From Candidatus Iainarchaeum sp. (GTDB taxonomy: Archaea; Iainarchaeota; Iainarchaeia; Iainarchaeales; JAFCCW01), in contig JAFCCW010000004.1 in assembly GCA_017609985.1 (NCBI GenBank), positions 15,899 through 79,898 on the forward strand: a stretch of 64,000 nt of DNA, read 5' to 3'. Shown here one piece after another: positions 652 through 57,345 of the stretch. Numbering within the stretch: position 1 is the stretch's first letter; the number at the start of each line of letters is the position of its first letter. Made by a program: the position numbers and the translations under genes. Under the pieces are notes generated by a model that searched no databases, was not told the DNA's origin, and saw only the letters and a list, made by a program, of their open reading frames with translations.

Positions 652-1850
652 CAGTCTGCACCCGCTGAGAGCAAATCATTCAATGCAATTATTGACTCTG
701 CAACATTGTTTCTCAGAACTTCAAGCTCTTCTCCTGAAAATCGCTTTGTTCTCATATAAGGGAGTGGTGTATCATGCTCATGTCTGACTGGTGCCTTTCC
801 TGCTTCTTCAACCAATCCCCATTTTTGCATAACTTTTGGAACATCAATAGAGTTGTAGCCTGGAAAAGTTCTTGCAAGCGCAAGAGTGCTCATTGAAGTG
901 CTGTCTTGCGGAGATTCATATAATTCCATTGGCACTACAACAACGCGCCTCCCATCTCCCTTCCACCAGTCGCACCATTTTCTTTCAATATAATCCGGCT
1001 GGAAAAGAATAGTGTATACGATCTCTGCAGACCTATCAGTGTCTCTAAGCAATCCTATTTCCCTAAGTCTTCTGTCAATTGCATATAGTTCCGAATTAAG
1101 TTTGCTTGTTTCTTCATTATAGCCCTGAGTTTTTTCTTCAATTTCTTGGTATGCTCTTAGTCTTTCCCGGTTTCCAGGGCGCTCCAAGAACATCTGCACA
1201 TATCTTCCATTCCTGTAGGAAGGGGTTGCTCTGTTGTTGACTGCGTGAATGCTCACAGACCTTGTCTGCCCCCCTGTTGAAAACAAATAGATGTGCGGGG
1301 CTGGAATGCATTTTCTGTCAAAAATTATCCTGACATGCGAACCATCTTTTGGTTCTATTCCTGTTATCTTGCAGGCTGGCTGCTTGTCATATTCAATCGA
1401 GATGTTTGCGCTATTTACACTAAAATATGTTCTTGTTGAATTAAGCTTGACTCTTACAACTTCTTTAGCTGTTTTTTTCCTGCTTTCCCCGCTGTCACCG
1501 TAGTATACAATGCCTTTCTTTTTTCCTTCCTCTAGCTTCAGCGTATAAGTTGAAGTTTTTGGGGTGCTGTTTCCAATCCTGCTTTGCTTTCTTACTTCCA
1601 CTGTTGCGCTTCTTGGACCAACTTCTTTAACAAGAAAGCTTATTCTCTGAGTCTCGCCAAAAAGCCAATCTTTTTCAATTTCCTCGTTTGGAATGATGTA
1701 AGAGTTTTCTTTTGCTATGCCAATTTCTGTCTTTGAAAAAAAATAAGGTGACTTTGAAACAGTCAGACTTGAATGCAATGCAAAGCAGTTTCCCACAATA
1801 ATCAAGAGGGCTAATGCAATCAGCAAAATCCTTTTGTTAGGCAATGGCAT
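651..1850 (-). CDS. hypothetical exported/membrane-anchored protein (399 aa)
   Basis: N-terminal hydrophobic segment LLIALALLIIVGNCFA looks like a signal peptide or anchor. No recognisable catalytic motif. Confidence 0.55.
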   Translation of the reverse strand: MPLPNKRILLIALALLIIVGNCFALHSSLTVSKSPYFFSKTEIGIAKENSYIIPNEEIEKDWLFGETQRISFLVKEVGPRSATVEVRKQSRIGNSTPKTSTYTLKLEEGKKKGIVYYGDSGESRKKTAKEVVRVKLNSTRTYFSVNSANISIEYDKQPACKITGIEPKDGSHVRIIFDRKCIPAPHIYLFSTGGQTRSVSIHAVNNRATPSYRNGRYVQMFLERPGNRERLRAYQEIEEKTQGYNEETSKLNSELYAIDRRLREIGLLRDTDRSAEIVYTILFQPDYIERKWCDWWKGDGRRVVVVPMELYESPQDSTSMSTLALARTFPGYNSIDVPKVMQKWGLVEEAGKAPVRHEHDTPLPYMRTKRFSGEELEVLRNNVAESIIALNDLLSAGAD

Positions 1851-43965: not shown

Positions 43966-46659
43966 TTATTTCTTTTTCTTCTTTTTTTCAAATTTCAACA
44001 GAGCCTTGTATGCGTTTTCTTCAGGAATATTCTCCATTTCAAAGCCTCTTGCCTTGCACACATCCACCATTATCCTGTTTTCCTTCATTATTGTGCCGTA
44101 AACCTGCTTTAATCCTCTTTTTCTTGCAATCTCAAGAATATAATCCATCATTTCGCTTCCCAGTCCCTTGCCCTGCCATGGATCCCCCACAACTATTGCA
44201 AACTCTGCACTCTCATTGTTTGGGTCGTGAATAAGCCTTACTACTCCGAGCATTTTTTTCTCACCTTTTTCTTCAGCTTCTGCAATAATTCCTATTTCTC
44301 GGTCATAGTCATTGTGAGTATATCTGACAAGCAAATCATGGGTTACCTCTTTGATTATCCTAAAAAATCTGTACTTCATGGTTTTCTCGCTAAATGTCTT
44401 GAACATTTCTGCTTCCATTGGCTCGTACTCTGGTCTGTTTGGCTTTAGCATGATTTTTTTTCCATCAACATTAATTTCTTTAATCAATTCCTTTGGATAA
44501 GGTCTTATTGCAAGATGTGAATAGGTTTCATCTTTTTCCTTTGGCTCGCTTTCAAGAATAATTCTTGCATCAAGCACAACAGCACCCTGTTCATCAACTA
44601 AAACAGGATTCATATCAACCTCTTTTATTTCCGGAAAGTCAGCAAGCAAATAAGAAAACCTAATAAGCATGTTTTCCAGCTCACGAATATTCGCAGGCTT
44701 CTTGTGCCGGTAACCCTTCATTGCATCAAACACTTTTGTTTCCTCCATAAGCCTTCTTGCAAGAGTCTGTGTTAGGGGTGGCAATGCAATATTTCTGTCC
44801 TTCATAACCTCAACTGCTGTTCCCCCTGCCCCAAAAACAATAACTGAACCAAACAAGCTGTCCTTTTTGGAACCAATCAATACCTCATAACCCTCTTTAT
44901 TAATCATTCTTTGAACAGTGACTCCCTCTACTTTTGCATCTGGATTTGCTTTCTTCACATTCTCCATTATTGTTGTAAAAGCAGTTTCAACTCCTTTTGT
45001 TGACTGCAGGTTAAGAATTACTCCTCCAACATCGCTCTTGTGAGTAACCTCTTTTGAATCAATCTTGAGCACAACAGGAAATCCAATTTTTTCAGCTGCC
45101 TTTCCCGCTTCCAACCCATTCTCTGCCTTAACTGTTTCAACTGAATGAATTCCATACTCTTTCATAAAATTCTTGCTCTCTGCCTCTGTCAAAATCATTC
45201 TCTTTTCCCTGCACGCTCCGGAAATTATTCTTTTCAGTTCTTTCTTGTCTGGATTAATTCCTGAAACAACTGCTTCCGGTGTCTCGTAAAGAAGCTCTAC
45301 ATTGTGCTTGTATCTATACATGTTCATGAAAGTGCTCACAGCATCTTCCGGGGTAAAATAATTTGGAATATTGTTACTGTGAAGAGTATTTACTGCTTCT
45401 CTCACTGAAGTCTCCCCAATAAAAGACGCAAACACTGGCTTATCTGTAAGCTTTGCATTTTCAATAATTGCCTTTGCGCTACCGGTTGCATCACTGCCAT
45501 CCTGTGGAGTAAAGATTGCAAGAATTCCGTCAGCATCAGATTTTTTTGCGCAAACCCTTAGTGCTGAATCATATCTCTCTGCCTTTGCATCTCCCAAGAT
45601 ATCAACTGGATTGCTTCTGCTCCAACACTTTGGAAGAACCGCATCAAGCTCTTTTACTCCCTTACTGTTAAGCGAAGCAAGCTCTCCACCCTTTTCAATT
45701 AATTCATCAGTAGCCATTACTCCTGGTCCGCCTGCGTTTGTAATAATGCAGAGTTTTTTTCCTGAAGGACGGGGCTGCATTCCAAGAACCTGTGCACAGT
45801 TGAACAAGTCTTCAATATCATAAACACGAAGCACTCCAGCTCTCTTGAAAGCAGCATCATATATTGCATCTTCCCCTGCCAAAGCACCAGTGTGGGAAGC
45901 AGCAGCCTCTGCACTCTCCGCAAACCTGCCGCTCTTAACAACAATTATTGGCTTGCTTCTGGCAAAACCTGAAGCAGCAGACATGAAAGATCGCGCATCC
46001 TTTATTGACTCAATATACAAAATAATACTGTGAGTGTGACTGTCTTCTCCAAAATAATCAATCAAATCACCAAAGTCAACGTCAAGCATTGAACCAATCG
46101 AAACAAAGTTGCTGAAACCAATGTTGTTGTAAGTAGCCCAGTCAATAACTGAAGTGCAGAGCGCACCAGACTGGCTTACAAAAGCAACACTTCCTTCCAA
46201 CGGCATCATCGGAGCAAAGCTTGCATTAAGATTCAGTGGAGGCCGAATTATTCCAAGACAATTTGGTCCAATAAGCCTCATGTTCTTTTTTCTGGCAGTT
46301 TCTGCAATATTTTGCTCTAGCTTTTTTCCCTCTTCATCCAACTCTCCAAATCCTGCTGAAACAATTACTGCACCGCCAACGTCTGAATCAGCACATTCTT
46401 GAATCACGCCTGGAACAAACTTTGCAGGAACAGCTACTACTGCTAAATCAATTTCTGCAGGCACTTCTTTTATTGAAGTATACGAGTGTATTCCCTGAAC
46501 ACTTTTATGGTTTGGATTAACTGGGTAAACAGTTCCCTCAAAACCTCTTCCAATCATGTTTTTGAGAAGAGAATAACCAACCGAACCCTGCTTTGAACTG
46601 GCTCCAACCACAGCAATATTCTTGGGAGAAAAAATCTTGTCCAAGTTCTTCGTACTCAA
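43966..46659 (-). CDS. Pat-like protein acetyltransferase: acetyl-CoA synthetase (ADP-forming) alpha/beta-like region fused to C-terminal GNAT domain, 897 aa
   Basis: N-terminal CoA-binding Rossmann (IAVVGASSKQGSVG), a succinyl-CoA-synthetase-like domain, an ATP-grasp, and a C-terminal GNAT (AFxIVVGDPWQGKGLGSEMMDYILEIARKRG). Confidence 0.8.
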   Translation of the reverse strand: MSTKNLDKIFSPKNIAVVGASSKQGSVGYSLLKNMIGRGFEGTVYPVNPNHKSVQGIHSYTSIKEVPAEIDLAVVAVPAKFVPGVIQECADSDVGGAVIVSAGFGELDEEGKKLEQNIAETARKKNMRLIGPNCLGIIRPPLNLNASFAPMMPLEGSVAFVSQSGALCTSVIDWATYNNIGFSNFVSIGSMLDVDFGDLIDYFGEDSHTHSIILYIESIKDARSFMSAASGFARSKPIIVVKSGRFAESAEAAASHTGALAGEDAIYDAAFKRAGVLRVYDIEDLFNCAQVLGMQPRPSGKKLCIITNAGGPGVMATDELIEKGGELASLNSKGVKELDAVLPKCWSRSNPVDILGDAKAERYDSALRVCAKKSDADGILAIFTPQDGSDATGSAKAIIENAKLTDKPVFASFIGETSVREAVNTLHSNNIPNYFTPEDAVSTFMNMYRYKHNVELLYETPEAVVSGINPDKKELKRIISGACREKRMILTEAESKNFMKEYGIHSVETVKAENGLEAGKAAEKIGFPVVLKIDSKEVTHKSDVGGVILNLQSTKGVETAFTTIMENVKKANPDAKVEGVTVQRMINKEGYEVLIGSKKDSLFGSVIVFGAGGTAVEVMKDRNIALPPLTQTLARRLMEETKVFDAMKGYRHKKPANIRELENMLIRFSYLLADFPEIKEVDMNPVLVDEQGAVVLDARIILESEPKEKDETYSHLAIRPYPKELIKEINVDGKKIMLKPNRPEYEPMEAEMFKTFSEKTMKYRFFRIIKEVTHDLLVRYTHNDYDREIGIIAEAEEKGEKKMLGVVRLIHDPNNESAEFAIVVGDPWQGKGLGSEMMDYILEIARKRGLKQVYGTIMKENRIMVDVCKARGFEMENIPEENAYKALLKFEKKKKKK

Positions 46660-47409: not shown

Positions 47410-48975
47410 TCATAAAAAAATCTGCTTTACGCTAATAATGTTTTCAATGTTTTTTAATTTATCCATAACTTCTTCGCTGAGTGCAGAGTCAAGATTTATT
47501 ATCGCAAGAGCTTTTTCTCCCTTGCTTTTTCTGCCAAGATGCCATTCTCCGATATTTATTTTGTTTTCTCCAAGCAGGGTTCCCACTGCTCCAATTACTC
47601 CTGGCTTGTCGTAATTTTCCATGAGCAAAATTGTCCCAGCAGGGATAAAATCAGTATTGAATTCTTTAAGCTGGACAATTCTTTGCTTTTTTCCTTCAAG
47701 AATCGCTCCCTTTAAAACCTCGCTCTTGCTTCCATTGGATTTAACAGTTATCATGTTTGTGTAGTCTTCTTCTTCAAAACTTTTAGCCTGCTTTACTATG
47801 ATGCCGTGCTTTGCCGCAATGACTGGGGAATTAACATAGTTTACTCCGTCTCTTATTCTGGAAAGCAATCCCTTGAGAAACGCAACAGTAACAAGTTTTA
47901 TTCTTCCCTCCATTTCTCCCCGCGCCTCTATTTCAATTCCCTTGCCTGCATCCTCAAGCTGAGAATGCAGGTTTCCCATTGCCTCGGCAAGCTCAAGAAA
48001 CGGTCTTAGCTTTATATAGTCCTCTCCTTCAAACGGCAGGTTTACAACATTTCTATAGCTTTTTTCTTTCAGTGCATCAGCAACCTGTTCTGCAAGCTGA
48101 ATGGAAACTTTTTTCTGGCTCTCAAAAGTGTTTGCTCCAAGATGAGGAGTCACAAGAGTCTTTGGGTGCTTCACAAGCTTGCTTTCTTTTGGAGGTTCGT
48201 CTTCAAAAACATCAAGGCCTGCTCCATAAAGCTCTCCTTTGTCAAGAGCCTTAAGCAATGCTTTTTCATTAACTATTCCTCCTCTGGCACAGTTAATTAT
48301 CACAGCATTCTTTTTCATTTTTGAAATTTCCTTTTCTCCAATTAAATCTTTTGTTTCCGCATTCATTGGAGCGTGAATTGTAAGAACATCGCATTTCTCA
48401 AGCAGTTCCTCCAAGTCATCAACAAGTGTTGCTCCGCATTTCCATGCTCGTTCTTCTGGAATGTACGGGTCAAAGGCAAGCACCTCCATTTCAAATGCCT
48501 TGCATCTTTTTGCAATTCTGCTTCCAATTCTTCCAAGTCCAATTATTCCAACTGTTTTCTTGTAAAGCTCAAAACCAGTGAACTGTTTTCTTTTCCATTC
48601 TCCCTGTTTGAGGGAATCATTTGCATTAGGAATAGTTCTGCAAAGAGACAACAGCAAAGCCATTGTGTGTTCCACAGCACTAATTGTGTTCGCATCAGGA
48701 GTATTCATTACAATAATTCCTTTTTCAGAAGCACTGTCCAAATCTATGTTGTCAATCCCCACTCCGCCTCTGCCAACAAGTTTTAGTTTTCCAGAATTTT
48801 TCAAAAGCTCGCAATCAATCTTGGTTTCACTTCTCGTCAGCAGAGCATCAAATTCTCCAATCAGGTCAAGCAATTCATTTCTTTTAATTCCTTGCTTTTC
48901 AACAACTTCAAAACCCTGTTCTCTTAGCATGTCAAGACCGCTTTTTTCAATTTCTCCAGTCACAAGGATTTTCAT
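47410..48975 (-). CDS. serA: D-3-phosphoglycerate dehydrogenase with ACT domain
   Basis: NAD-binding GIIGLGRIGSRIA, catalytic R/E/H, and a C-terminal ACT domain (DKPGVIGAVGTLLGENKINI). Confidence 0.9.
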   Translation of the reverse strand: MKILVTGEIEKSGLDMLREQGFEVVEKQGIKRNELLDLIGEFDALLTRSETKIDCELLKNSGKLKLVGRGGVGIDNIDLDSASEKGIIVMNTPDANTISAVEHTMALLLSLCRTIPNANDSLKQGEWKRKQFTGFELYKKTVGIIGLGRIGSRIAKRCKAFEMEVLAFDPYIPEERAWKCGATLVDDLEELLEKCDVLTIHAPMNAETKDLIGEKEISKMKKNAVIINCARGGIVNEKALLKALDKGELYGAGLDVFEDEPPKESKLVKHPKTLVTPHLGANTFESQKKVSIQLAEQVADALKEKSYRNVVNLPFEGEDYIKLRPFLELAEAMGNLHSQLEDAGKGIEIEARGEMEGRIKLVTVAFLKGLLSRIRDGVNYVNSPVIAAKHGIIVKQAKSFEEEDYTNMITVKSNGSKSEVLKGAILEGKKQRIVQLKEFNTDFIPAGTILLMENYDKPGVIGAVGTLLGENKINIGEWHLGRKSKGEKALAIINLDSALSEEVMDKLKNIENIISVKQIFL

Positions 48976-50045
48976 TAATTCATCGCCTCAACAATTTCAT
49001 TAATTGTTTCCAGCAATTCATTCACATCATTTAGGCTAGTGTCCCCCATGTGAGCAATCCTGAAAGTTCTTCCTGCAAGTTTTCCATATCCGTTTCCGAT
49101 GAGAAAACCTTCTTTTTCAAGCTTTGAAATCAGCTCTGAAACATCAAGTCCTTTGTTGTTCTCAACAGCAGTAACTGTTAGGGATTCATAACCTGGTTCT
49201 GCAAACAAAGCCCATTCTTCTTCCGCCCATCCCTGAACAAGCTTTGCCATTTCCCAATGCCTCTCAAATCTCTGCTCCAGCCCCTCATCAAGAATTTCAT
49301 TCAGTTTATGGTTTAGTGCATAAATTTGTGGAATTGCAGGAGTGCTTGGAGTCTGTGCTTTTTTATCATATTTTGCAAACTCTGTAAAGTCAAAATAATG
49401 CCCCCTGTTTTTGGTTTCAGAAGCTCGCTTAATTGCTCTGTCTGAAACAGATGCCATTGCAAGTCCTGGAGGGATAGCAAGACATTTTTGAGAAGATGCA
49501 AGAAGCACATCTATTCCAAGCTTGTCTGTTTCAATTTTTACTCCCCCCAAAGAACTCACTGCATCAACACAAAACATTGTTTCAGGAAAGTCTTGCACAA
49601 TTTTTGCAATTTTTTCAAGCTTGTTCATGGCACCGGTTGAAGTTTCATTATGAGTTAAAAAAACAGCATCAAATTTTTCTTTGCTCAACTGTTCTTCAAC
49701 ATCCCCTGCCTTGATTCCCAAACCCCAGTCATATTCAAGCTTTTCTGCTTTCTTTCCATTTGCTTTTGCTATCTTAAACCATTTCTCGCTGAAAGCTCCG
49801 TTTACAAGATGAAGAGATTTGTTCTGGACAAGATTTCTTGTAGCTGCTTCCATGAGTCCGCTTCCGGAAGAAGTTGACAAAAAAATTCTGTTATCAGTAA
49901 ACATTATTTTTCTTAAATTTCCAGTGACCTCTCTGTAAAGTTTAGAAAAGTCTTCTGACCTGTGCCCAATCATCTGTTTTGAAAGACTGTTTCTAGTATT
50001 TTCACACAAGTTAACAGGCCCTGGAATAAACATTCTCTTAATCAT
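48975..50045 (-). CDS. class V aminotransferase (phosphoserine / serine-pyruvate aminotransferase family)
   Basis: PLP-fold motifs (TSTG, SSQKCL Lys region). It sits between serA and serB with overlapping stops and starts. Confidence 0.75.
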   Translation of the reverse strand: MIKRMFIPGPVNLCENTRNSLSKQMIGHRSEDFSKLYREVTGNLRKIMFTDNRIFLSTSSGSGLMEAATRNLVQNKSLHLVNGAFSEKWFKIAKANGKKAEKLEYDWGLGIKAGDVEEQLSKEKFDAVFLTHNETSTGAMNKLEKIAKIVQDFPETMFCVDAVSSLGGVKIETDKLGIDVLLASSQKCLAIPPGLAMASVSDRAIKRASETKNRGHYFDFTEFAKYDKKAQTPSTPAIPQIYALNHKLNEILDEGLEQRFERHWEMAKLVQGWAEEEWALFAEPGYESLTVTAVENNKGLDVSELISKLEKEGFLIGNGYGKLAGRTFRIAHMGDTSLNDVNELLETINEIVEAMN

Positions 50046-50889
50046 CCTGTTTCACCTTCAATAAAGAATTTAGGTGGCTTCTTATTTTAATTGCTTTTCC
50101 TGAAAAATCAACCTGTTCAATCGCAAGTCTTGTTCCCTTTTTTGCAAGCAGGTCTCCACCTTCAACAGCTTTCTTTAGTTTCTCTTGTCCAAGAGCAATT
50201 GCGTAAAAAGGAGCAAGTGATTCACAATTAATATAAACATCTGATTCTTTCTTCACGTTCTCTCTTTTCTCCACTCCACCGTATCCTGCAAAAAGCCCCA
50301 CCTGATTTTTTACTTCAAGATCGCTTGACCCGTCACCAGTGTATATTATTTCCTCTGGCTTCGCTCCAATTGATTTAATCATCTCAATCTTTCCCTCGCT
50401 TTTCCATAAGGGGGATTTTTTATCAAATCCGATGAATTCCTGTTTTTTTCCATTTTCAAAATCAGAGTAATTCCACCAGTTTCCTGAAAGCTGGTCAAAG
50501 AACAATGGAACTGCGAGCACGTTCTTTTTTCTTATTCCAAGTCTCCAGGCAAATTTTTTCACTGGCTCTGAATAGCCTCCGCTTACAACAAAAACTTCAA
50601 TTCCATTTTTCCTTAGACTTTCCACAGTTTGCTTTGCATCTTCAACTGCATTCTTTGTGTAAAGCTTCACCAGCTTTTCAATCTGTTCTCTTGACGGATT
50701 AATTATTTTCAGTCTTTTTTGAAAAACCTGTTCAAGTGGAATCTCTCCATCCATTGCTTTTTTTGTAAGCTCTTCAACTGCCTCAAACTTTCCCGCCAAG
50801 CGTGCTAGCTCGTCAATTCCCTCTATTCGTGAAAGCGTGGAATCACAATCAAAAACCGCAACTCTAAAACTGTTATCAAACAAGAACAA
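50038..50889 (-). CDS. serB: phosphoserine phosphatase (HAD superfamily)
   Basis: HAD motif I VAVFDCDSTL, motif III K, motif IV GDGSSD. Operon context with serA. Confidence 0.75.
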   Translation of the reverse strand: MFLFDNSFRVAVFDCDSTLSRIEGIDELARLAGKFEAVEELTKKAMDGEIPLEQVFQKRLKIINPSREQIEKLVKLYTKNAVEDAKQTVESLRKNGIEVFVVSGGYSEPVKKFAWRLGIRKKNVLAVPLFFDQLSGNWWNYSDFENGKKQEFIGFDKKSPLWKSEGKIEMIKSIGAKPEEIIYTGDGSSDLEVKNQVGLFAGYGGVEKRENVKKESDVYINCESLAPFYAIALGQEKLKKAVEGGDLLAKKGTRLAIEQVDFSGKAIKIRSHLNSLLKVKQDD

Positions 50890-51023: not shown

Positions 51024-51758
51024 CTATGAAAAAACTAGTTTAAACAAATACATTAAGCTTATTCCAATCGCAAAAGCTCCAAGCGCAGCAACAGACTTTT
51101 TCCAGCTTGTTTCCTTTTTTATTTCCGGAATCAAGCCAGATGCTGCAATGTACATAAAACTTCCAGCAGTAAATGGGATAAGAGAAACAGCAAGCCAGCC
51201 AATATTTCCCATTATAAAATACCCTACAAGTCCGCCGATTATAACAGTCAGTGCAGAAGCAAAATTAAACAAAAGAGCTTTCATTTTGCTGAATCCGCCA
51301 TAAACAAGAACTCCAAAATCGCCTATCTCCTGTGGAATTTCATGAAGTGCAACAGCAAAAAACGTGGTTATTCCAAGCTCAAAACTGGTTAGAAAAGATG
51401 CAGCTAAAATTAACCCATCAATAAAATTATGAAAACCATCTCCAATAAGAATCAGGTATGACAAAGAATGCTGTTCACATTTTCCGCTGTGACAGTGATG
51501 CCAGTGAAGAAATTTTTCAATCGCCAAAAAAACACTAAATCCAATTATTGCAAGAACAAACGCACCAATTCCTGGAATTTGCTCTGCAGCTTCAGGCAGC
51601 AGATGGAGTAAGGCACCGCCCATAAAAGCTCCTGCTGATAGTCCAACAAGAACAAGCAGTATCTTGTCCAAAATCTTGTCATTAATTGCAAGTGATACAA
51701 TGCCTACAAATGCAATAAGTGCAATCGCAAAACTGCTTCCTAAAATCCATTCAAGTAT
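51024..51758 (-). CDS. ZIP-family divalent metal transporter (ZupT-like); start codon unresolved
   Basis: HNFIDGLILAASF and HEIPQEIGDFGVL ZIP signatures. The ORF track starts it at TTG 51671. The preceding 29 in-frame codons (ILEWILGSSFAIALIAFVGIVSLAINDKI) encode a typical ZIP TM1 and begin right after the TAG of the upstream gene; there is no ATG, GTG or TTG among them. Confidence 0.6.
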   Translation of the reverse strand: MLEWILGSSFAIALIAFVGIVSLAINDKILDKILLVLVGLSAGAFMGGALLHLLPEAAEQIPGIGAFVLAIIGFSVFLAIEKFLHWHHCHSGKCEQHSLSYLILIGDGFHNFIDGLILAASFLTSFELGITTFFAVALHEIPQEIGDFGVLVYGGFSKMKALLFNFASALTVIIGGLVGYFIMGNIGWLAVSLIPFTAGSFMYIAASGLIPEIKKETSWKKSVAALGAFAIGISLMYLFKLVFS

Positions 51759-52649
51759 CTAATCACCTATTTCTCCAAGAACACTTTCAACAATTGGCTC
51801 GAACAGTTTTTCAATCTTTGTACTGAATTCAACAGCAGGTTTCAGTTCCACAAGAGACTTTACAAAATCCTTGTCATAGGGGATTTTTCCAAGAACAGGA
51901 ATCCCACTCTCTTTCGCAAAGATCTCTATTTCCTCTGTTTTTTCAGGATTCAAATCCCATTGATTAATTATTATTCCATAAGGAATTCCAAATTGTTCCA
52001 CAACCTGTAGGGCTCGTTTAAGGTCACTAAATCCGCTGGGGGTTGTTTCAGCTATTCCAACAACAAAATCGCTTTCCCTTACTGCCGCAATAACCGGGCA
52101 ACCAATTCCAGCAGCAGCATCCACTATAACCAATTCTGTATTTTCTTCTTCCGCAAGCTCTCTTGCAGCTTGCTTTACTTCATCAACAACTTTTCCAGAA
52201 CCAGATTCTCCCATTTCAAGCTGGGCTCCAACCATCTTGAACCCATAATCTGTTTCTCCTCTCACTGCACTTGCATTCTCTATTTCCACAAGCTTGATTG
52301 CTCCAGCAGGACAGGCAAGAGCACATGCTCCGCAGCCCTCACAAAGAAATCTATTGAACACTGGTTTCTCTCCTGGTTTCCACGAAATCGCATTAAAGGC
52401 ACAAATCTCCGCACACTTTCCGCAAGCAAGACATTTTTCTTCTGAAAAACTTGACTTGTGAGCCGCCTTTATTTTTTCTACTTCTTTTAACTTGTTTTTA
52501 AGACCAAGGGAAATTGCAAGATTTGGAGCATCAACATCAGCATCAACTGCCACAATCTTTTTTTCTTTTGCAATCATTACTGCAAGCGATGCGGTTATGG
52601 TTGTCTTTCCCGTGCCACCCTTTCCTGACAAAATAGTTAGGGTCTTCAT
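51759..52649 (-). CDS. MinD/ParA-superfamily P-loop ATPase with inserted 2x[4Fe-4S] ferredoxin domain (COG1149-type)
   Basis: Deviant Walker A GKGGTGKTT, the insert CLACGKCAEIC...CEGCGACALACP, and a downstream ATPase half. Confidence 0.8.
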   Translation of the reverse strand: MKTLTILSGKGGTGKTTITASLAVMIAKEKKIVAVDADVDAPNLAISLGLKNKLKEVEKIKAAHKSSFSEEKCLACGKCAEICAFNAISWKPGEKPVFNRFLCEGCGACALACPAGAIKLVEIENASAVRGETDYGFKMVGAQLEMGESGSGKVVDEVKQAARELAEEENTELVIVDAAAGIGCPVIAAVRESDFVVGIAETTPSGFSDLKRALQVVEQFGIPYGIIINQWDLNPEKTEEIEIFAKESGIPVLGKIPYDKDFVKSLVELKPAVEFSTKIEKLFEPIVESVLGEIGD

Positions 52650-53488
52650 TTTAACACCTCCACTGCATCAGCTATTGCTTCAATTTCCTTTCCACTAATT
52701 GCCTCACCCAAAGAATATTTTTTTCTTATTTCTTTACTGTAAGGAATTTTTCCAACAAGCTCTGCATTAAATTTCTTTGCAATCTCTTCCACTTTTTCAC
52801 TTTCTGCAATTCCTGCCTTGTTCAAAATAAGGTTTTTTGAAATTCCAAGCACGTCAAGAAGCTTTAAAATAAGCTGCACATCATGCTCCCCCAAGGGAGT
52901 TGGCTCTGTCACAGCAAACGCATGTTCCACACCGACCAGTGCAGAAATAACATTGCAATGCGTTCCAGCAGCAGTATCTACAAGAACATAGTCAAATTCT
53001 TTCTCTATTTCAGTTGCCTTCTTCATCAAAGCATGGACAATTGGAGAGGCTTCTTCAAAACCTATTTTTATTTCTCCAGTGAGAAGAGTAATTCCATCTT
53101 TTTCTCCTTTGTAAATAGCACCTATATTTTGCGTGTCATAGCTTATTGCTCCCACTGGACATGCAAGACTGCAGGCACCGCATCCAGTGCACTGTTCTTT
53201 TACAAGAATAGGAGTTCTGTTTTTTACAAAAACAATAGCATTCTCCATGCAGTGCTCTGAGCACTTTCCGCACTTGGTGCATTTTTTCGAATCAAAAACA
53301 GGAATTTTTCCCTTAATATCATCAATTTTTTTTCTCTCGATTGAAAGAATCAAGTCGTCATTAGGACAGTCTACATCCGCGTCCACTAAAAGAACTTTCT
53401 TTCCTCTTTTCCCAAGCTCTGTAGCCAAAGCTGTTGAGACAAGGCTCTTGCCTGTCCCTCCCTTTCCGCCAGTTATTCCAAGTTTCAT
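52646..53488 (-). CDS. MinD/ParA-superfamily P-loop ATPase with inserted ferredoxin domain (paralogue, COG1149-type)
   Basis: GGKGGTGKSL; CTKCGKCSEHC...CTGCGACSLACP. Overlaps the downstream paralogue by 4 nt. Confidence 0.8.
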   Translation of the reverse strand: MKLGITGGKGGTGKSLVSTALATELGKRGKKVLLVDADVDCPNDDLILSIERKKIDDIKGKIPVFDSKKCTKCGKCSEHCMENAIVFVKNRTPILVKEQCTGCGACSLACPVGAISYDTQNIGAIYKGEKDGITLLTGEIKIGFEEASPIVHALMKKATEIEKEFDYVLVDTAAGTHCNVISALVGVEHAFAVTEPTPLGEHDVQLILKLLDVLGISKNLILNKAGIAESEKVEEIAKKFNAELVGKIPYSKEIRKKYSLGEAISGKEIEAIADAVEVLK

Positions 53489-53490
53489 TT

Positions 53491-53829
53491 TTACACCTCA
53501 AAGTCTTCCAAAGCTTTTATTACCTGCTGCATATACATTAAGGCAGGACCCCCGCCCATCATTGTGGCAACCCATGCAGCTTCCATTATTTCTTCTTTTT
53601 TAGCTCCGCTCTCCAACGCATTTTTTATGTGAAATGCAATGCACCATTTGCATTGAGAATTCACTGATAATGCAACTAAGATAAGTTCTTTGTTTTTTTT
53701 AGATATTGCTCCTTCTTTTTCCACAGCATGCATAAATTCGTGAAAACTTTTCATTTGTTCAGGATATTCTTTTCCAAACTGTGCAAGATTTTTATTTATC
53801 TCCTCTAAGTATTTGTTTGAATCATTCAT
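53491..53829 (-). CDS. carboxymuconolactone decarboxylase-family (AhpD-like) protein
   Basis: AhpD-core CxxC-H motif NSQCKWCIAFH within an all-alpha ~110-aa protein. Confidence 0.7.
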   Translation of the reverse strand: MNDSNKYLEEINKNLAQFGKEYPEQMKSFHEFMHAVEKEGAISKKNKELILVALSVNSQCKWCIAFHIKNALESGAKKEEIMEAAWVATMMGGGPALMYMQQVIKALEDFEV

Positions 53830-53840
53830 TCTATTGCCTC

Positions 53841-54173
53841 CTAATGCCCACAGCTTTCTGTTAGATCTTCAAGAAAGTCAAGGTTTTCAACAACTTCTTT
53901 AACTGTTCTATAATCGCCAGTTTTAAGAATTATTTTTCTATTTTTACATTCCTCTATTGCATTCATTCCCAGCCCGTGTGAAAAAATAGCATCTACTTTT
54001 TTTTCATCCAATGCAAGCACTGGCGAACAACCCGAACTCATTTGGTTAACTTTCACAAACTCTAAACTTTTCGTTTCAGAATCATACACTGCGAGAAAAA
54101 CAACATGCCCAAAATGGGGTGCGATTTCAGATTCCAATCCTTTATTATCTAATACTGGAATTCCAATTTTCAT
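53841..54173 (-). CDS. NifX/NifB-C-terminal-like (dinitrogenase FeMo-cofactor-binding fold, COG1433) protein
   Basis: MKIGIPVLDNKGLESEIAPHFGHVVFLAVYD...VDAIFSHGLGMNAIEEC, the family N-terminal signature. Confidence 0.75.
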   Translation of the reverse strand: MKIGIPVLDNKGLESEIAPHFGHVVFLAVYDSETKSLEFVKVNQMSSGCSPVLALDEKKVDAIFSHGLGMNAIEECKNRKIILKTGDYRTVKEVVENLDFLEDLTESCGH

Positions 54174-54442
54174 TCCGAATCAGCTCCGTTTTTTGTTTCT
54201 TCTAACTTTTTTGCATTTTGCTCTTCAATTAATTTTATTCCAAGCCCTTTAAACCCATAAAAAGAAAAATATGCTGAAGCAAAGAAAACAATTAACAAAA
54301 AGACATTTCCAAAAGAAAGCAATCCAAACACAATAAACATTGCAGGATAAAGATAACGTCTATACCAGCAGCTTTCCTCGTTTACAGTAAAATAATATAT
54401 AAGCGTAAACAGTAACGCAATAATTCCAAAAATTTCATTCAT
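54170..54442 (-). CDS. small two-TM membrane protein (90 aa)
   Basis: Two hydrophobic helices. It overlaps its neighbours by 4 and 8 nt, which suggests operon coupling. Confidence 0.45.
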   Translation of the reverse strand: MNEIFGIIALLFTLIYYFTVNEESCWYRRYLYPAMFIVFGLLSFGNVFLLIVFFASAYFSFYGFKGLGIKLIEEQNAKKLEETKNGADSE

Positions 54443-55700
54443 TCAAACCATCTCCTTTCTTTGTGTGCTTATCAAGCCTTTCAAGTTTTCCCCCTGCAAA
54501 ATTTTTTGCAACCTCTTCAACAGTTTTTCCCTTAAGAAAATAAATATCTACGAAATGGTCTCTGATTGTGTGAAAAGAAATTTCCCCAAGATTTGAAGTA
54601 ACAAGAGCATCTGCTTTCTCTTTGCAGATAAGATTGGATGCGTCCAACCCTGCTTTGACATTTTTTTTAGTGAATGGATTTTTCTTGCAGTAATGCTCTA
54701 CAATTTCTCCGCTGTCTGAATTAATTGTTACAAAAATGAATTTCTTTGCTCTGCCAAACTTTCCCAAGGCAATACTTTCAAGACCATTATCTTCTTCAAC
54801 AGGAATAGCAATTTTTTGTTCAACTGTCTTAAATGGTTCTATGTGAATGCTTATTCTTTCAACTTCGGGAATTGCATTCATAACTCTTTTCTCGATTCTG
54901 TCAGAAATTGCATGAGCTCTCTGCACATCAATATTTTTCTTGATTTTTATTATAATTTCTCCAAAAATAAACGGACCTGCTTTTCTCAGCATAATGTTTC
55001 CTATTCCTGCCACGTTTGGAACACTGCTTACAATTCTTGTAACCCTGCTTTCAACTTCCTTGCTTGCGCCAACATCCATTAGCGCAAAAACAGAGTCTCT
55101 TGCATTTTCAAAACCGATTTTTAAAATCATCAAAGAAATTGCAATAGTTATTGCTCCCTCTACATATGGAACACTAAAATAAGAAAGCAGAATAGCAATG
55201 AAAACAATTCCTGACGCAAGAATATCAACTTTTTTGTCGTCAGCATTTGCCTTAAGCGAATCAGACTTTGTTTCTTCACCAATCTTTTTCAAATATCTTT
55301 CATTCCAAAAGCTTGCAATAATTGAAACCCCTGCTACTCCAAGAGCAATCAAAGGCATTTCAATATTTGATGGCAAAAATAAAGCAAGATATCCATTGTA
55401 CAATGTTTCAATTGCAGCGTAAAGAATTACAATTGAAACAGTGAGAGCTGCAAGATTTTCTGCCTTAAAATATCCATAGGGAAATTTTTCATCTGGTTCT
55501 CTTTGCGCAATTTTTAGCCCAAACCAGGCTGCTGCTCCTGCAACAAGGTCTGTTCCAGAATGAAGCGCATCACTAATCAATACAACGCTTCCAGACATCA
55601 AACCAGCTACTCCCTTTCCCAAAGCAAGAGCTAAAGAAATCAATGCAGTAACTGCTGCTGCCTTTTCTCCCCTCTTGAGAGACTTTTGCTTTTCATTCAT
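54435..55700 (-). CDS. cation diffusion facilitator (CDF) transporter with an extra C-terminal NifX-like (COG1433) domain
   Basis: CDF TM core (SDALHSGTDLVAG...) and a cytosolic CTD, then ~125 aa KIAIPVEEDNGLESIALGKFGRAKKFIFVTIN...ADALVTSNLGE matching the NifX-like fold. Confidence 0.8.
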   Translation of the reverse strand: MNEKQKSLKRGEKAAAVTALISLALALGKGVAGLMSGSVVLISDALHSGTDLVAGAAAWFGLKIAQREPDEKFPYGYFKAENLAALTVSIVILYAAIETLYNGYLALFLPSNIEMPLIALGVAGVSIIASFWNERYLKKIGEETKSDSLKANADDKKVDILASGIVFIAILLSYFSVPYVEGAITIAISLMILKIGFENARDSVFALMDVGASKEVESRVTRIVSSVPNVAGIGNIMLRKAGPFIFGEIIIKIKKNIDVQRAHAISDRIEKRVMNAIPEVERISIHIEPFKTVEQKIAIPVEEDNGLESIALGKFGRAKKFIFVTINSDSGEIVEHYCKKNPFTKKNVKAGLDASNLICKEKADALVTSNLGEISFHTIRDHFVDIYFLKGKTVEEVAKNFAGGKLERLDKHTKKGDGLNE

Positions 55701-56161
55701 TGCATTCCTCTTCTTCCTGCGCCCATTCCTCGCCCCTGACCAGCGCCTGCTCCTCTGCCTTGGCCGGCTCCAAAGCCTGCGCCCGTGGTTGGCTTTCCAC
55801 CGCTTCCCATTGGACCGGGCATGCTTAACTCTTGAAGCTTTCCGCTGGCTGCTTCAATAACACTTTTTTCAATGCTTCCGCCATTTCCAACAAAAACCTT
55901 TATTCCTAATTCATTCATTACTCCAAAAGCTCTTGGCCCCATGGCTCCGGTTACTATTGCTTCAACTCCCTCGTTTCCAATAAGCTGTGCTGCGCTGATT
56001 CCAGCCCCGCCAGCTTGCCCAACAGCTGTGTTTTGCAAACTTTTTATTTCTTTGACTTCTTCTCCTTCAACTTCTGCTATTACAAAAAATGGACATCTGC
56101 CAAAAATAGGGCTTGACTCTGCATCCAATCCTTGTCCTTGAGAACTTACTGCTATCTTCAA
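55697..56161 (-). CDS. NifX-like (COG1433) protein with Gly/Arg-rich C-terminal tail
   Basis: MKIAVSSQGQGLDAESSPIFGRCPFFVIAEV...VEAIVTGAMGPRA. Tail GAGFGAGQGRGAGAGQGRGMGAGRRGMQ. Confidence 0.7.
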   Translation of the reverse strand: MKIAVSSQGQGLDAESSPIFGRCPFFVIAEVEGEEVKEIKSLQNTAVGQAGGAGISAAQLIGNEGVEAIVTGAMGPRAFGVMNELGIKVFVGNGGSIEKSVIEAASGKLQELSMPGPMGSGGKPTTGAGFGAGQGRGAGAGQGRGMGAGRRGMQ

Positions 56162-56254: not shown

Positions 56255-56410
56255 CTATTCCCTAATCATTGCTGTTCCGCACTTTGAGCATTTTTGCTGA
56301 AAGCAAGGCAAGCCAGTTGAATGTGCTGACTTTGTACCGCACGAAGGACAGACACATCCTCCACCAGGCCCCTGTGCAAAACCACCCATTCTTCCTCTTC
56401 CGCTCTGCAT
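56255..56410 (-). CDS. small Gly/Arg- and Cys-rich protein (51 aa), possible zinc ribbon
   Basis: Manual translation: MQSGRGRMGGFAQGPGGGCVCPSCGTKSAHSTGLPCFQQKCSKCGTAMIRE. Below the ORF-track size cutoff. Confidence 0.45.
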   Translation of the reverse strand: MQSGRGRMGGFAQGPGGGCVCPSCGTKSAHSTGLPCFQQKCSKCGTAMIRE

Positions 56411-56464
56411 TATTATCAACTCCTTTTCTATTTATTTAAATATAGAAAAGAAAGAAAAACTGAC

Positions 56465-56851
56465 TTACTTTTCTAGTTCAGTCAGCCTTTTTTTGACTGC
56501 ATTCAGTTCTTGTTCCAATGCGCTGGCTTCCTGATTTAAAGCTTCAATTTCCTGTTGCTTAAAGTCCTGTTGCGCTACTGGTGTAGACGCATTTGCTGGA
56601 ACATTATATGCTGGTGCGCCAAGATATTGCTGTGCCTGCACTCCTGCCACAAAAAATCTTCCGCGAAAGCCTCTTCCTCGACCAAAGCCAACTCCAAAGC
56701 CTCTGCCTCTACCGAAACCTCTTCCCGCTCCAAATCCAGGGCCTGTTGCATATCCTGGTGCATTGTATCCTGCACAATATCCTGTGCCTCTTCCTGTCAT
56801 TGAACCCATTCCATTAGGTCCTGTTCTGTTTCCAAATGGCATTTTTACCAA
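56465..56851 (-). CDS. DUF5320-like protein: Gly/Arg/Phe low-complexity N-region plus C-terminal coiled coil
   Basis: MPFGNRTGPNGMGSMTGRGTGYCAGY...GRGFGRGRGFGVGFGRGRGFRGRFF, then a heptad-rich EIEALNQEASALEQELNAVKKRLTELEK. The likely true start is MPFGN at about 56842. Confidence 0.6.
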   Translation of the reverse strand: MVKMPFGNRTGPNGMGSMTGRGTGYCAGYNAPGYATGPGFGAGRGFGRGRGFGVGFGRGRGFRGRFFVAGVQAQQYLGAPAYNVPANASTPVAQQDFKQQEIEALNQEASALEQELNAVKKRLTELEK

Positions 56852-56973: not shown

Positions 56974-57345
56974 TTACATCCATTTCATTCCTCTTCTGCC
57001 TCTTCCTCTGAAGAAAGCAGGCTGGAAAGGAATTTCCTCAATATTCTCTGATATGTCATCAATCATTTCCCCAAGGCTTTCAAAGATTGCTCCTGCCTTT
57101 CCGCTTCCCATACTGTAAAAAGAAAAATTTCCTGACTTCCTTGTCTTAACCAGCCCGACGCTTTTAAGTGCAGACAGGTGATGGGAAACAAGAGGCTGTG
57201 ACTGGTTAACCTCTATTGCAATCTGTGAAACAGATTTCTCCCCATCCTTAAGCAACTTCATTATCAAAAGCCTGTTCGGGTCTGAGAGCACGCTGAAAAC
57301 GCGTGCAAAGACAAGCGCTTCCTTTCTTTCCTTAGGTGAAATCAT
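56974..57345 (-). CDS. ArsR/SmtB-family metalloregulatory transcription factor with RG-rich C-terminal tail
   Basis: wHTH LSDPNRLLIMKLL...SVSQIAIEVNQSQPLVSHHLSALKSVGLV. Tail FFRGRGRRGMKWM. Confidence 0.8.
   Translation of the reverse strand: MISPKERKEALVFARVFSVLSDPNRLLIMKLLKDGEKSVSQIAIEVNQSQPLVSHHLSALKSVGLVKTRKSGNFSFYSMGSGKAGAIFESLGEMIDDISENIEEIPFQPAFFRGRGRRGMKWM

Follow-up and report, generated by a model that had tools for sequence, protein, structure and literature searches.

A cation diffusion facilitator fused to a PF02579 domain in a PF02579/MinD-ferredoxin gene cluster of uncultured archaea and bacteria

Introduction

What does a metal exporter do with a PF02579 domain at its C-terminus, in a cluster of genes for PF02579 proteins and MinD-ferredoxin ATPases? 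Clusters of this ORP type are widespread in anaerobes, and among the functions proposed for them are roles in cell division, in the maturation of Fe-S clusters and in the binding of Mo-Cu. The question is raised by a 64,000-nt stretch of contig JAFCCW010000004.1 of the archaeon Candidatus Iainarchaeum sp. (the window), in which an initial annotation had recognized a cation diffusion facilitator (CDF) metal exporter that continues into an additional domain, described there as NifX/NafY-like and cofactor-binding. Here we consider whether this fusion is genuine, what its two halves are, and how it relates to the genes around it.

Results

One gene with three colinear domains

The fusion gene starts with an ATG, its frame contains no internal stop when read directly from the DNA, and its stop codon is at 54435-54437 (Table 1). 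The two separate ORFs that the initial annotation had considered are not there; the 421-aa frame runs through without stop or frameshift. Three Pfam families are matched, each above its own cut-off: Cation_efflux at residues 17-208 (E 2e-48, 165.3 bits vs a cut-off of 26.6, covering PF01545 profile positions 3-198 of 198), ZT_dimer at residues 213-290 (E 2.8e-16) and, in the C-terminal part, Nitro_FeMo-Co (PF02579) at residues 313-401 (E 1.1e-10, 42.1 bits vs a gathering cut-off of 26.3). The CDF cytosolic domain is thus followed by a complete extra domain, as had been claimed, and the motif quoted in that claim, KIAIPVEEDNGLESIALGKFGRAKKFIFV, corresponds to residues 296-324. In PDB sequence searches, YiiP/FieF aligns with residues 11-291 (E 7.5e-24) and the PF02579 protein TM1290 with residues 296-416 (E 2e-7).

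All 120 database homologues listed have the same three domains in the same order, at 43-68% identity and, apart from one fragment, 91-100% coverage, and this colinearity rules out that faulty assembly or a frameshift created the fusion. A close relative, 304 aa long and on a 1-kb contig, does end after the CDF domain, but with an uninterrupted frame here and colinear full-length homologues from many independent assemblies in both domains of life, the chance that a sequencing or assembly error has merged two genes into one reading frame is negligible. The fusion of a CDF exporter with a PF02579 domain is confirmed as real.

Table 1. Features of the fusion gene and its neighbors (coordinates within the window)
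Feature	Coordinates	Strand	Support
ArsR-family HTH regulator, cluster head, no cysteine, ends FFRGRGRRGMKWM	56974..57345	minus	HTH_5 E 1.3e-16
DUF5320 protein: long Gly/Arg/Phe-rich segment, then coiled-coil-like C-terminus	56465..56851	minus	Pfam E 6.6e-23
54-aa protein: GRGRMGG segment and CxCPxCG...CxxC zinc ribbon	56255..56419	minus	
Upstream PF02579 protein, 154 aa, translationally coupled to fusion gene	55697..56161	minus	Pfam E 1.1e-20
CDF exporter with C-terminal PF02579 domain, whole gene	54435..55700	minus	Single 421-aa ORF
Transmembrane domain, six helices, residues 1-208	55077..55700	minus	Pfam, TIGR01297, AF2
Transport site A: H47; D51; D155; D159	55560-55562; 55548-55550; 55236-55238; 55224-55226	minus	Codons checked
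Cytosolic CDF C-terminal (dimerisation/regulatory) domain, residues 213-290	54831..55064	minus	ZT_dimer, alignment
Linker, three residues K291-T292-V293	54822..54830	minus	Between last CDF cytosolic strand and first PF02579 strand
PF02579 domain (IssA/ORP/MTH1175-type), residues 294-413	54462..54821	minus	Pfam, PDB profile search, Foldseek
90-aa ORF, two hydrophobic segments, overlaps both neighbor genes	54170..54442	minus	
Second stand-alone PF02579 protein, 110 aa, tailless	53841..54173	minus	Pfam E 5.9e-11
CMD/AhpD-like protein, CxxC motif (QCKWC)	53491..53829	minus	Pfam CMD E 9.3e-20
MinD/ParA-type P-loop ATPase with inserted 2x[4Fe-4S] ferredoxin domain	52646..53488	minus	CbiA, ParA, Fer4
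Second MinD-ferredoxin ATPase, 4-nt overlap with first	51759..52649	minus	CbiA/ParA and Fer4
ZIP-family metal importer (ZupT-like), last gene of run	51024..51671	minus	Pfam Zip E 9.4e-38

The same architecture is common among public sequences. A scan of species-representative genomes matched 335 stretches, the best 80 of which are full-length fusions, encoded by DPANN archaea, Thermoplasmatota, Bathyarchaeia, Methanosarcinales and CPR bacteria. It is no rarity: hundreds of uncultured archaea and bacteria have the fusion. Automated public annotation calls these proteins just ‘cation diffusion facilitator family transporter’, and the suspicion that the fusion had so far gone undescribed agrees with full-text literature searches, which gave no description of a CDF-PF02579 fusion, the DUF134 angle being obscured there by names of the form DUF134x. 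A paper on ANME-2a archaea mentions a CDF adjoining NifX-family, P-loop and 4Fe-4S genes, and reads it, without evidence, as nickel uptake for F430.

An intact CDF with a variable transport site

Identification of the N-terminal part as a CDF metal exporter holds up well: the CDF model TIGR01297 scores 221.6 bits vs a cut-off of 82.35, the AF2 model has six helices (residues 3-36, 39-65, 78-108, 116-144, 147-174 and 179-207) followed by a beta-alpha-beta domain, and transport site A is occupied. The six-helix transmembrane domain and ferredoxin-like cytosolic domain are those of the Fe/Zn-type CDFs YiiP/FieF and MamM/MamB, from which the extra 130-residue PF02579 domain sets the fusion protein apart. 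Foldseek matches the cytosolic domain to the MamM CTD with TM 0.93-0.95 and an rmsd of 0.9 A, and also matches the AF2 model to YiiP.

The metal-liganding quartet on TM2 (xxxD) and TM5 (xxxD) is present with all four positions ligand-type, H47, D51, D155 and D159 aligning with D45, D49, H153 and D157 of E. coli YiiP. Site A has the composition known from YiiP/FieF, one His and three carboxylates on TM2/TM5, whereas its His lies on TM2 in the fusion protein and on TM5 in YiiP/FieF, and the site B histidines of YiiP/FieF are absent (F73, Y77). Across the 120 relatives D51 is invariant and the four positions are always ligand-type (N in one sequence), forming the quartets HDED (43 relatives), HDEH (36), EDDD (15), DDDD (10), HDDD (9), DDED (6) and NDDD (1), of which DDDD and NDDD resemble Mn-CDFs. 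Among the family members we found no case in which the site A His had moved in a compensatory way from TM2 to TM5 or back; the quartets vary without such a pattern. Since site A varies across the family, the substrate may differ between members. In the cytosolic domain, H263, H286 and E288 align with H261, H283 and D285 of site C in YiiP, and each is conserved in 118-119 of the 120 relatives.

The closest named NCBIfam models are those for the iron transporters MamM and MamB, followed by MntE and FieF, and all score far below their cut-offs (164 bits vs 350 for MamM, the best; 127.5 vs 420 for FieF). No equivalog cut-off is reached by the MamM, MamB, MntE, FieF, ZitB or DmeF models, and the substrate is therefore not assignable by orthology. 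We infer that it is most likely Fe2+, with Mn2+ or Zn2+ also possible.

A PF02579 domain matching the MTH1175/ORP/IssA branch

The profile of the fused domain matches seven solved PF02579 proteins (TM1816, MTH1175, TM1290, PH0822, MJ0327, ORP and Ta1041) at E values of 4e-20 to 7e-4. Foldseek gives target-normalised TM-scores of 0.75-0.91, with the orange protein ORP as best structural match, and the only NCBIfam model matched is the Di-Nase part of MrpORP. With these hits the fused domain matches the MTH1175/TM1816/ORP/IssA branch of PF02579, the kind of domain that proteins storing or carrying iron-sulfur have. Conserved within it are the generic PF02579 loops FGRA, NP and RAG and the family-specific polar residues H377, R380 and D381; a conserved cysteine or other obvious cluster ligand was not found across the 120 relatives. 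A recent fusion with a neighboring gene was considered and rejected, the fused domain being just 26% and 25% identical to the adjacent PF02579 proteins.

The junction between the two halves appears stiff. AF2 places strands at residues 280-290 and 294-301, with junction pLDDT given as 83-86 and as 83-95, the span from residue 290 to 300 is identical in length in 120 of 120 relatives, and a construct of CTD plus PF02579 domain reaches a pTM of 0.73 where the full-length protein has 0.53, both as monomer models. From the fixed linker length, the junction pLDDT and the rise in pTM, we infer that the fused domain is rigidly coupled to the CDF cytosolic domain.

A compact cluster with IssA-like and ORP-like members

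The cluster runs from the DUF134/ArsR position through DUF5320, a stand-alone PF02579 gene and the fusion to two MinD-ferredoxin ATPases. From the IssA-like PF02579 gene to the second ATPase, no gap between neighbors exceeds 11 nt and some genes overlap, and the sequence ATGA holds both the start codon of the fusion gene and the stop codon of the gene before it. The 90-aa ORF downstream of the fusion has no homologue in 85 related loci. In relatives, the GRGRMGG/zinc-ribbon module of the 54-aa protein is found fused to DUF134 or PF02579 proteins.

The tail of the 154-aa upstream protein is 42 aa long and counts 17 Gly and 5 Arg/Lys but no acidic residue (pI 12). By the published definition of IssA, an IPR003731 domain followed by a glycine-rich, cationic and aromatic C-terminal tail, its architecture is fully IssA/IssX-like (PMC5524996). 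IssA of Pyrococcus furiosus, a thioferrate iron-sulfur storage protein compared here by its published description, has an MTH1175-type PF02579/IPR003731 domain, as does the fusion (PMC5524996). MTH1175 served Vaccaro et al. as structural model for the IssA domain, and the IPR003731 domain of IssA alone binds Fe and S (PMC5524996). IssA is soluble and forms nanoparticles, whereas the fused domain is attached to a membrane transporter. An Arg/Gly/Trp tail such as YRGWGRRGWWWRGRGPWWRR ends 27 of the 120 fused proteins, with the chemical character described for the cationic, thioferrate-binding Arg/Gly/aromatic tail of IssA (PMC5524996); the window protein, in contrast, has no such tail and ends in a short acidic KKGDGLNE.

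With two PF02579 genes and two paralogous MinD-type ATPases that each carry two [4Fe-4S] motifs, the window cluster has the parts of the Desulfovibrio ORP complex (Orp3/4/8/9; PMC6345978) plus the IssA-like protein, a likeness known here from genes. The ATPases are Orp3/Orp4-like by the published description of those proteins (PMC6345978). The systems differ in their regulators, since Desulfovibrio ORP is under sigma-54-dependent regulation while fusion clusters have a DUF134 or ArsR regulator, and no CDF is described for the Desulfovibrio system in the ORP literature examined. MrpORP (PMC6345978) is a precedent for a PF02579 domain that is fused to a P-loop NTPase and binds Fe-S, but the three cysteines of MrpORP_CT said to hold a [3Fe-4S] cluster have no conserved counterpart in the fused domain.

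Gene neighborhoods in related genomes

Of 84 related loci, 57 have both a stand-alone PF02579 gene and a MinD-ferredoxin gene on the strand of the fusion and no farther than 6 kb from it; where 3 kb or more of sequence is available on both sides (46 loci), this holds for 34. FeoAB, Zip or NifU_N genes are close by in some. A MrpORP-like gene (a Mrp-PF02579 fusion), missing from the window, occurs in one relative's locus, where it adjoins a fusion gene whose product has gained a FeS_assembly_P domain. About 20 of 85 related loci have the fusion with no cluster nearby, mostly in Methanomassiliicoccales, Thermoplasmata, Bathyarchaeota and Actinomycetota.

Discussion

In hundreds of genome-reduced archaea and bacteria, an exporter is fused to a signature domain of a cluster and encoded inside that cluster. 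By a ‘Rosetta stone’ argument, the PF02579/MinD-ferredoxin cluster would then handle metal, in all likelihood iron and iron-sulfide, and have a membrane outlet, and the recurrence of the fusion inside the cluster suggests how it connects to the membrane. From the observed architecture, conservation, synteny, fold type, relatives' tails and intact transport site, we predict the metal's identity, ligand binding and coupling as follows. With middling confidence, we propose that the protein exports a divalent metal, probably Fe2+, and that a rigidly attached module, which binds Fe-S or docks partners, would link this export to the cytosolic Fe-S pool. The fusion protein would be the membrane component of the conserved cluster; its PF02579 domain would bind anionic Fe-S species non-covalently, like IssA and ORP, and/or dock onto the soluble PF02579 and MinD-ferredoxin partners. 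Because the domain is rigidly attached beside the metal-sensing cytosolic domain, metal export would be coupled to the state of the iron-sulfur pool, either as a ‘store is full’ sensor or by passing on iron that Fe-S material gives up. The putative roles offered by the initial annotation, in which the domain senses or delivers the substrate or the exporter removes metal that a cluster has released, are plausible.

Several observations count against this proposal. The window protein has neither a cationic tail nor, in its fused domain, a conserved Cys or other obvious cluster ligand; site A differs from member to member, so that the substrate may differ too; every equivalog score lies far below its cut-off; and there are the loci in which the fusion stands without a cluster. 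The ORP complex has been tied to cell division rather than metal trafficking (PMC6345978), and P. furiosus cells without IssA were still analyzed for thioferrate-like iron, the authors of that work favoring detoxification over storage.

The rival that survives best holds that the PF02579 module is ligand-free and an adaptor only, tethering an ORP-like complex to the transporter or strengthening CDF dimerisation. In D. vulgaris, PF02579 proteins share a single physical complex with MinD-ferredoxin ATPases, and on its own the Di-Nase domain is dimeric (PMC6345978). MrpORP localizes to the cell pole, most loci have the fusion gene nested among PF02579 and MinD-ferredoxin genes, and the fused domain's lack of a conserved Cys fits as well. 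We nonetheless consider a pure adaptor somewhat unlikely: the FGRA, NP and RAG loops with H377, R380 and D381 suggest a binding pocket over a bare interface, and the IssA-type cationic tail in a quarter of the relatives and the Fe-S assembly domain in one point to ligand handling.

It is also possible, if quite improbable, that the metal is another one, with the CDF moving Mn2+, Zn2+, Co2+ or Ni2+, the domain binding a Mo/W-Cu-type thiometallate, and the cluster serving Mo/W or general metal homeostasis. ORP is the best structural match, and ORP homologues hold a non-covalent Mo-Cu sulfide cluster (PMC6345978); the carboxylate-rich DDDD and NDDD sites resemble Mn-CDFs, and MntE is one of the best-scoring named models; the ArsR-family regulator and the ZIP importer belong to the generic equipment of metal homeostasis; and one related cluster has FmdE. 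Links to iron and Fe-S are more numerous, however, comprising the IssA-like neighbor, FeoAB, NifU_N, the FeS_assembly_P fusion, the MrpORP-like neighbor and the ferredoxin-type ATPases, and among the genes of the window cluster we saw none for molybdate or tungstate transport or cofactors.

That the transporter carries a nitrogenase-type NifX/NafY-like carrier of FeMo-co or NifB-co is highly improbable. The Pfam family name and the superfamily PF02579, shared with the C-terminal domain of NifX/NafY/NifB, are all that speak for it. There is no detectable similarity at the subfamily level: NafY and NifB are absent from the PDB profile search with the fused domain even at E<=10, NafY is absent from the Foldseek top 50, and the NifX and NafY NCBIfam models give no match at E<=0.01 in 37 members. 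We see no evidence that the NifX/NafY/NifB ligand-binding residues are present in the fused domain, and no nif genes (nifHDK, nifEN, nifB) occur in the window cluster or annotated related loci. The NifX/NafY assignment thus fails in its strict sense, and since there is no conserved Cys, no nif gene and the hosts are DPANN- and CPR-type organisms, binding of a FeMo-co-like cluster is not the natural reading. The Fe-S/thioferrate-type ligands of IssA and MrpORP are the closer precedent.

A bolder version of the iron proposal, which we think unlikely, starts from the Arg/Gly(/Trp) segments found on soluble PF02579 proteins, DUF5320, the small zinc-ribbon protein and the DUF134 or ArsR regulator, and in many genomes also on the CDF-PF02579 transporter itself. 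These cationic segments might all recognize one inorganic polyanion, a thioferrate-like (FeS2-)n polymer, and the cluster would then be a self-contained iron-sulfide mineral system of DPANN and CPR organisms. At the membrane, the CDF-PF02579 protein would hold Fe-S particles in place, supply them or dissolve them, in a role rather like that of MamB/MamM in magnetite formation, and the regulator's tail would sense the polymer directly. If true, the thioferrate reading bears on tolerance to iron sulfide influx in sulfidic habitats.

For CDF transporters themselves, a fused PF02579 domain would widen the repertoire of regulation past the canonical cytosolic domain. As a separate observation, close CDFs include some with odd architectures (PRK plus CYTH, a PriA 3'BD domain, and a tandem CDF), which may be gene-calling chimeras.

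The fused gene and its distribution

The fused gene is a single unbroken frame of 421 codons with an ATG start, both by ORF calling and by direct reading of the DNA, and its product matches three Pfam domains above their gathering scores (table). The CDF superfamily model of NCBIfam gives 221.6 bits (cut-off 82.35), and in a PDB sequence search residues 11-291 align with YiiP/FieF (E 7.5e-24) and residues 296-416 with the PF02579 protein TM1290. The fusion that the initial annotation described, a CDF exporter with an extra C-terminal domain in one ORF, is therefore correct, far beyond chance, and the prospect of an artefact is negligible. The gene content elsewhere in the window is archaeal, with split RpoA and RpoB subunits, aEF-2, aEF-1alpha, a Sec61-type SecY and RtcB.

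The three-domain architecture is present in 120/120 homologues listed (43-68% identity), those with names bearing only the source label 'cation diffusion facilitator family transporter'. When a single genome per species was scanned, 335 stretches encoding a relative were found. The best 80 of these span almost the entire query, in most cases from about residue 1 to residue 415, and come from archaea (Aenigmatarchaeota, Woesearchaeota, Iainarchaeum, Micrarchaeota, Parvarchaeota, Thermoplasmata/Methanomassiliicoccales, Bathyarchaeota, Methanosarcinales) and bacteria (Saccharibacteria, Parcubacteria, Portnoybacteria, Actinomycetota), with some further MAGs under an untrustworthy Gammaproteobacteria label. 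One related locus is certainly bacterial, since bacterial RNA polymerase alpha and ribosomal genes adjoin it. Full-length fusions also form the majority of the best 150 representatives of 50%-identity clusters. Full-text literature searches found no paper describing the architecture, in line with the earlier impression that it was undescribed.

Several 'binchicken' MAGs labelled Gammaproteobacteria/Pseudomonadales (loci L002/L066, L043, L049, L054, L058, L070) carry the cluster; these labels look doubtful, and the gene order matches a Microgenomates (CPR) contig: LigD_N, DUF134, PF02579, fusion, MinD-ferredoxin, 395-aa protein, MinD-ferredoxin, YibE_F. Three close CDF relatives have other C-terminal additions, namely phosphoribulokinase/uridine kinase plus CYTH (P0235), a PriA 3'-DNA-binding domain (P0153) and a tandem CDF (P0263), which may be real or may reflect chimeric gene calls.

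Features of the fused protein, its gene cluster and other parts of the window
Feature	Position	Strand	Remarks
Cation_efflux	fusion residues 17-208		Pfam, E 2e-48
ZT_dimer	fusion residues 213-290		Pfam, E 2.8e-16
Nitro_FeMo-Co PF02579	fusion residues 313-401		Pfam, E 1.1e-10; 42.1 bits, gathering score 26.3
1 ArsR-type regulator	56974-57345	-	
2 DUF5320	56465-56851	-	
3 RG + zinc-ribbon protein	56255-56419	-	54 aa
4 PF02579 protein with Gly/Arg tail	55697-56161	-	154 aa
5 CDF-PF02579 fusion	54435-55700	-	421 aa
6 two-TM ORF		-	90 aa
7 PF02579 protein		-	110 aa
8 CMD/AhpD-like CxxC protein	53491-53829	-	
9 two MinD-type ATPases		-	inserted 2x[4Fe-4S] ferredoxin domains
10 ZIP importer		-	
HAD-family hydrolase, class-V aminotransferase, 3-phosphoglycerate dehydrogenase with ACT domain	47410-50889		directly downstream of ZIP gene, same strand
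ADP-forming acyl-CoA synthetase (CoA-binding, succinyl-CoA-ligase-like, ATP-grasp) + C-terminal GNAT acetyltransferase	43966-46659		897 aa
Large ORF	23415-25496		693 aa
Large ORF	651-1850		399 aa

The transporter and the extra domain

An AlphaFold2 monomer model (39 family sequences as input, mean pLDDT 84) has six long helices at residues 3-207, an alpha-beta cytosolic domain and a further alpha/beta domain. Alignment to E. coli YiiP predicts a transport site (site A) of H47 and D51 on TM2 with D155 and D159 on TM5; YiiP likewise has one His and three carboxylates there, but the fusion's His is on the other helix, and F73 and Y77 replace the site B histidines. D51 is invariant among the 120 relatives, whose site A quartets are HDED (43), HDEH (36), EDDD (15), DDDD (10), HDDD (9; also the quartet of the window's fusion), DDED (6) and NDDD (1). 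Judged from these residues, metal selectivity may have diverged within the family; quartets of carboxylates only, and NDDD, resemble manganese CDFs. At cytosolic site C, 118-119/120 relatives retain each of H263, H286 and E288. In a structure search with the model, the cytosolic domain fits the MamM CTD with an rmsd of 0.9 A. The nearest named NCBIfam models are MamM, MamB, MntE and FieF, every score lying well under its equivalog cut-off.

Three residues separate the last strand of the CDF cytosolic domain (280-290) from the first of the PF02579 domain (294-301), with pLDDT 83-86 at this modelled junction. The spacing of family positions 290 to 300 is the same in 120/120 sequences, and residues 209-421 modelled separately reach pLDDT 88.4 and pTM 0.73, against pTM 0.53 for the whole protein. 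These data fit two cytosolic domains held in a fixed arrangement.

The C-terminal part had initially been called a NifX/NafY-type domain. Its PF02579 membership stands in the profile scan, but the assignment within PF02579 does not. Searched against the PDB, the fused-domain profile matches TM1816 (4e-20), MTH1175 (1e-19), TM1290, PH0822, MJ0327, ORP (5e-8) and Ta1041, but neither NafY nor NifB at a cut-off as loose as E<=10. Across 37 family members the only NCBIfam match is the Di-Nase part of MrpORP (33/37), with none to NifX or NafY models, and the orange protein ORP is the top match in a structure search with the model. Among the 120 relatives the domain has no conserved cysteine; it keeps the generic PF02579 loops (S309, FGRA 315-318, N341-P342, R/K349-A-G351, G372) together with H377, R380 and D381. 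Thus the extra domain is a genuine PF02579 domain of the IssA/ORP/MTH1175 type and, by its profile, NCBIfam-model and structural matches, not a NifX/NafY-type cofactor carrier. A nitrogenase-cofactor role for the protein is correspondingly far-fetched.

A gene cluster with iron-sulfur links

In the window, from the tailed PF02579 gene through the second ATPase, neighbouring genes overlap or lie at most 11 nt apart. The usual order in relatives is DUF134, (DUF5320), PF02579, fusion, MinD-ferredoxin, (395-aa membrane protein), MinD-ferredoxin. Stand-alone PF02579 and MinD-ferredoxin genes both occur within 6 kb on the same strand at 57/84 loci, and at 34/46 loci that have 3 kb or more of sequence to either side; about 20 loci (a fifth), mostly in Methanomassiliicoccales, Thermoplasmata, Bathyarchaeota and Actinomycetota, have the fusion without the cluster. 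The Desulfovibrio ORP complex is likewise made up of PF02579 proteins and two ferredoxin-type MinD ATPases; in its Mrp-PF02579 subunit each domain binds Fe-S clusters (PMC6345978).

The 154-aa upstream protein has the architecture of IssA/IssX as delimited by Vaccaro et al. (PMC5524996), its 42-residue tail (pI 12) holding 17 Gly, 5 Arg/Lys and no acidic residue. An IssA-like tail follows the PF02579 domain in 27/120 fused transporters (e.g. YRGWGRRGWWWRGRGPWWRR; GPWW in 17), the window's fusion having none. One relative, P0156, combines CDF, ZT_dimer, PF02579 and FeS_assembly_P; it sits behind MinD-ferredoxin, Mrp/ParA-PF02579 (MrpORP-like) and metallo-beta-lactamase-fold genes, with NifU_N about 3 kb downstream (locus L087, 6001-7575 and 3890-5152). 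Other related clusters are flanked by FeoAB or Zip genes. In M. voltae, expression of two PF02579 proteins is raised on pyrite (PMC8516115).

In related loci, RG-rich segments are far commoner in cluster proteins (28/67 stand-alone PF02579, 22/60 DUF134 and 22/30 DUF5320 proteins) than in the remaining ORFs of 100 aa or more (16/1363). Four of the window's cluster proteins have cationic Arg/Gly-rich segments: the tailed PF02579, DUF5320 and zinc-ribbon proteins and the ArsR-type DNA-binding regulator (last 13 residues), which ends in FFRGRGRRGMKWM and has no cysteine. A small recurrent module, 'GRGRMGG(P)F..GPGGxCxCPxCG', joins an RG stretch to a zinc ribbon. In the window it stands alone as the 54-aa gene, whereas in relatives (L001 9350-9811, L002 5973-6473, L007 1189-1743, L009 5998-6588) it is C-terminal on DUF134 or PF02579 proteins. 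Within this cluster it acts like a mobile domain, and we found no name for it.

The 395-aa protein, often between the two MinD-ferredoxin genes (L001 10223-11410, L002 9063-10250, L003 9066-10253), has no confident Pfam match. With an N-terminal thioredoxin-like GCPHC, about seven hydrophobic segments and AINPCAF and LLPCTSGP motifs, it looks by eye like a thioredoxin-CcdA/DsbD-type membrane thiol-disulfide protein. It is absent from the window, which has the CMD/AhpD-like CxxC protein instead.

Discussion

We propose, with about even confidence, a divalent-metal exporter rigidly extended by an IssA/ORP-type module. The transporter would export a divalent metal, most likely Fe2+, and the module, extending the regulatory cytosolic domain of the CDF, would bind Fe-S species non-covalently and/or dock soluble PF02579/MinD-ferredoxin proteins, so that export would be tied to the cytosolic iron-sulfur pool. 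What the data show directly is the three-domain architecture and how well it is conserved, its type of fold, the synteny and the additional fusions in relatives; metal identity, ligand binding and coupling are inferred. Against this stand the window copy, which is without a tail, and the absence of the cluster at a fifth of related loci; that the fused domain is purely an adaptor is unlikely. The variable site A chemistry, Mn-like variants included, also counts against our proposal; transport of another metal, or a thiometallate as the ligand in the manner of ORP, is a still slimmer chance.

PF02579 is fused to a radical-SAM domain in NifB. It is also joined to a P-loop domain in MrpORP (PMC6345978) and to a magnetochrome domain in FmpB (PMC4287615). 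Both the CDF-PF02579 fusion and its position as the membrane component of an ORP/IssA-type cluster appear to be undescribed, though the parts are known. The biological roles of the ORP complex and IssA are both debated, and the fusion, while no new principle, offers a widespread and testable way into a system that is specific to anaerobes and still unexplained.

Elsewhere in the window, the 693-aa and 399-aa ORFs have no Pfam match at E<=1e-5. The three genes next to the ZIP importer look like a serB/serC/serA-type serine pathway trio, and the 897-aa fusion resembles bacterial Pat-type protein acetyltransferases.
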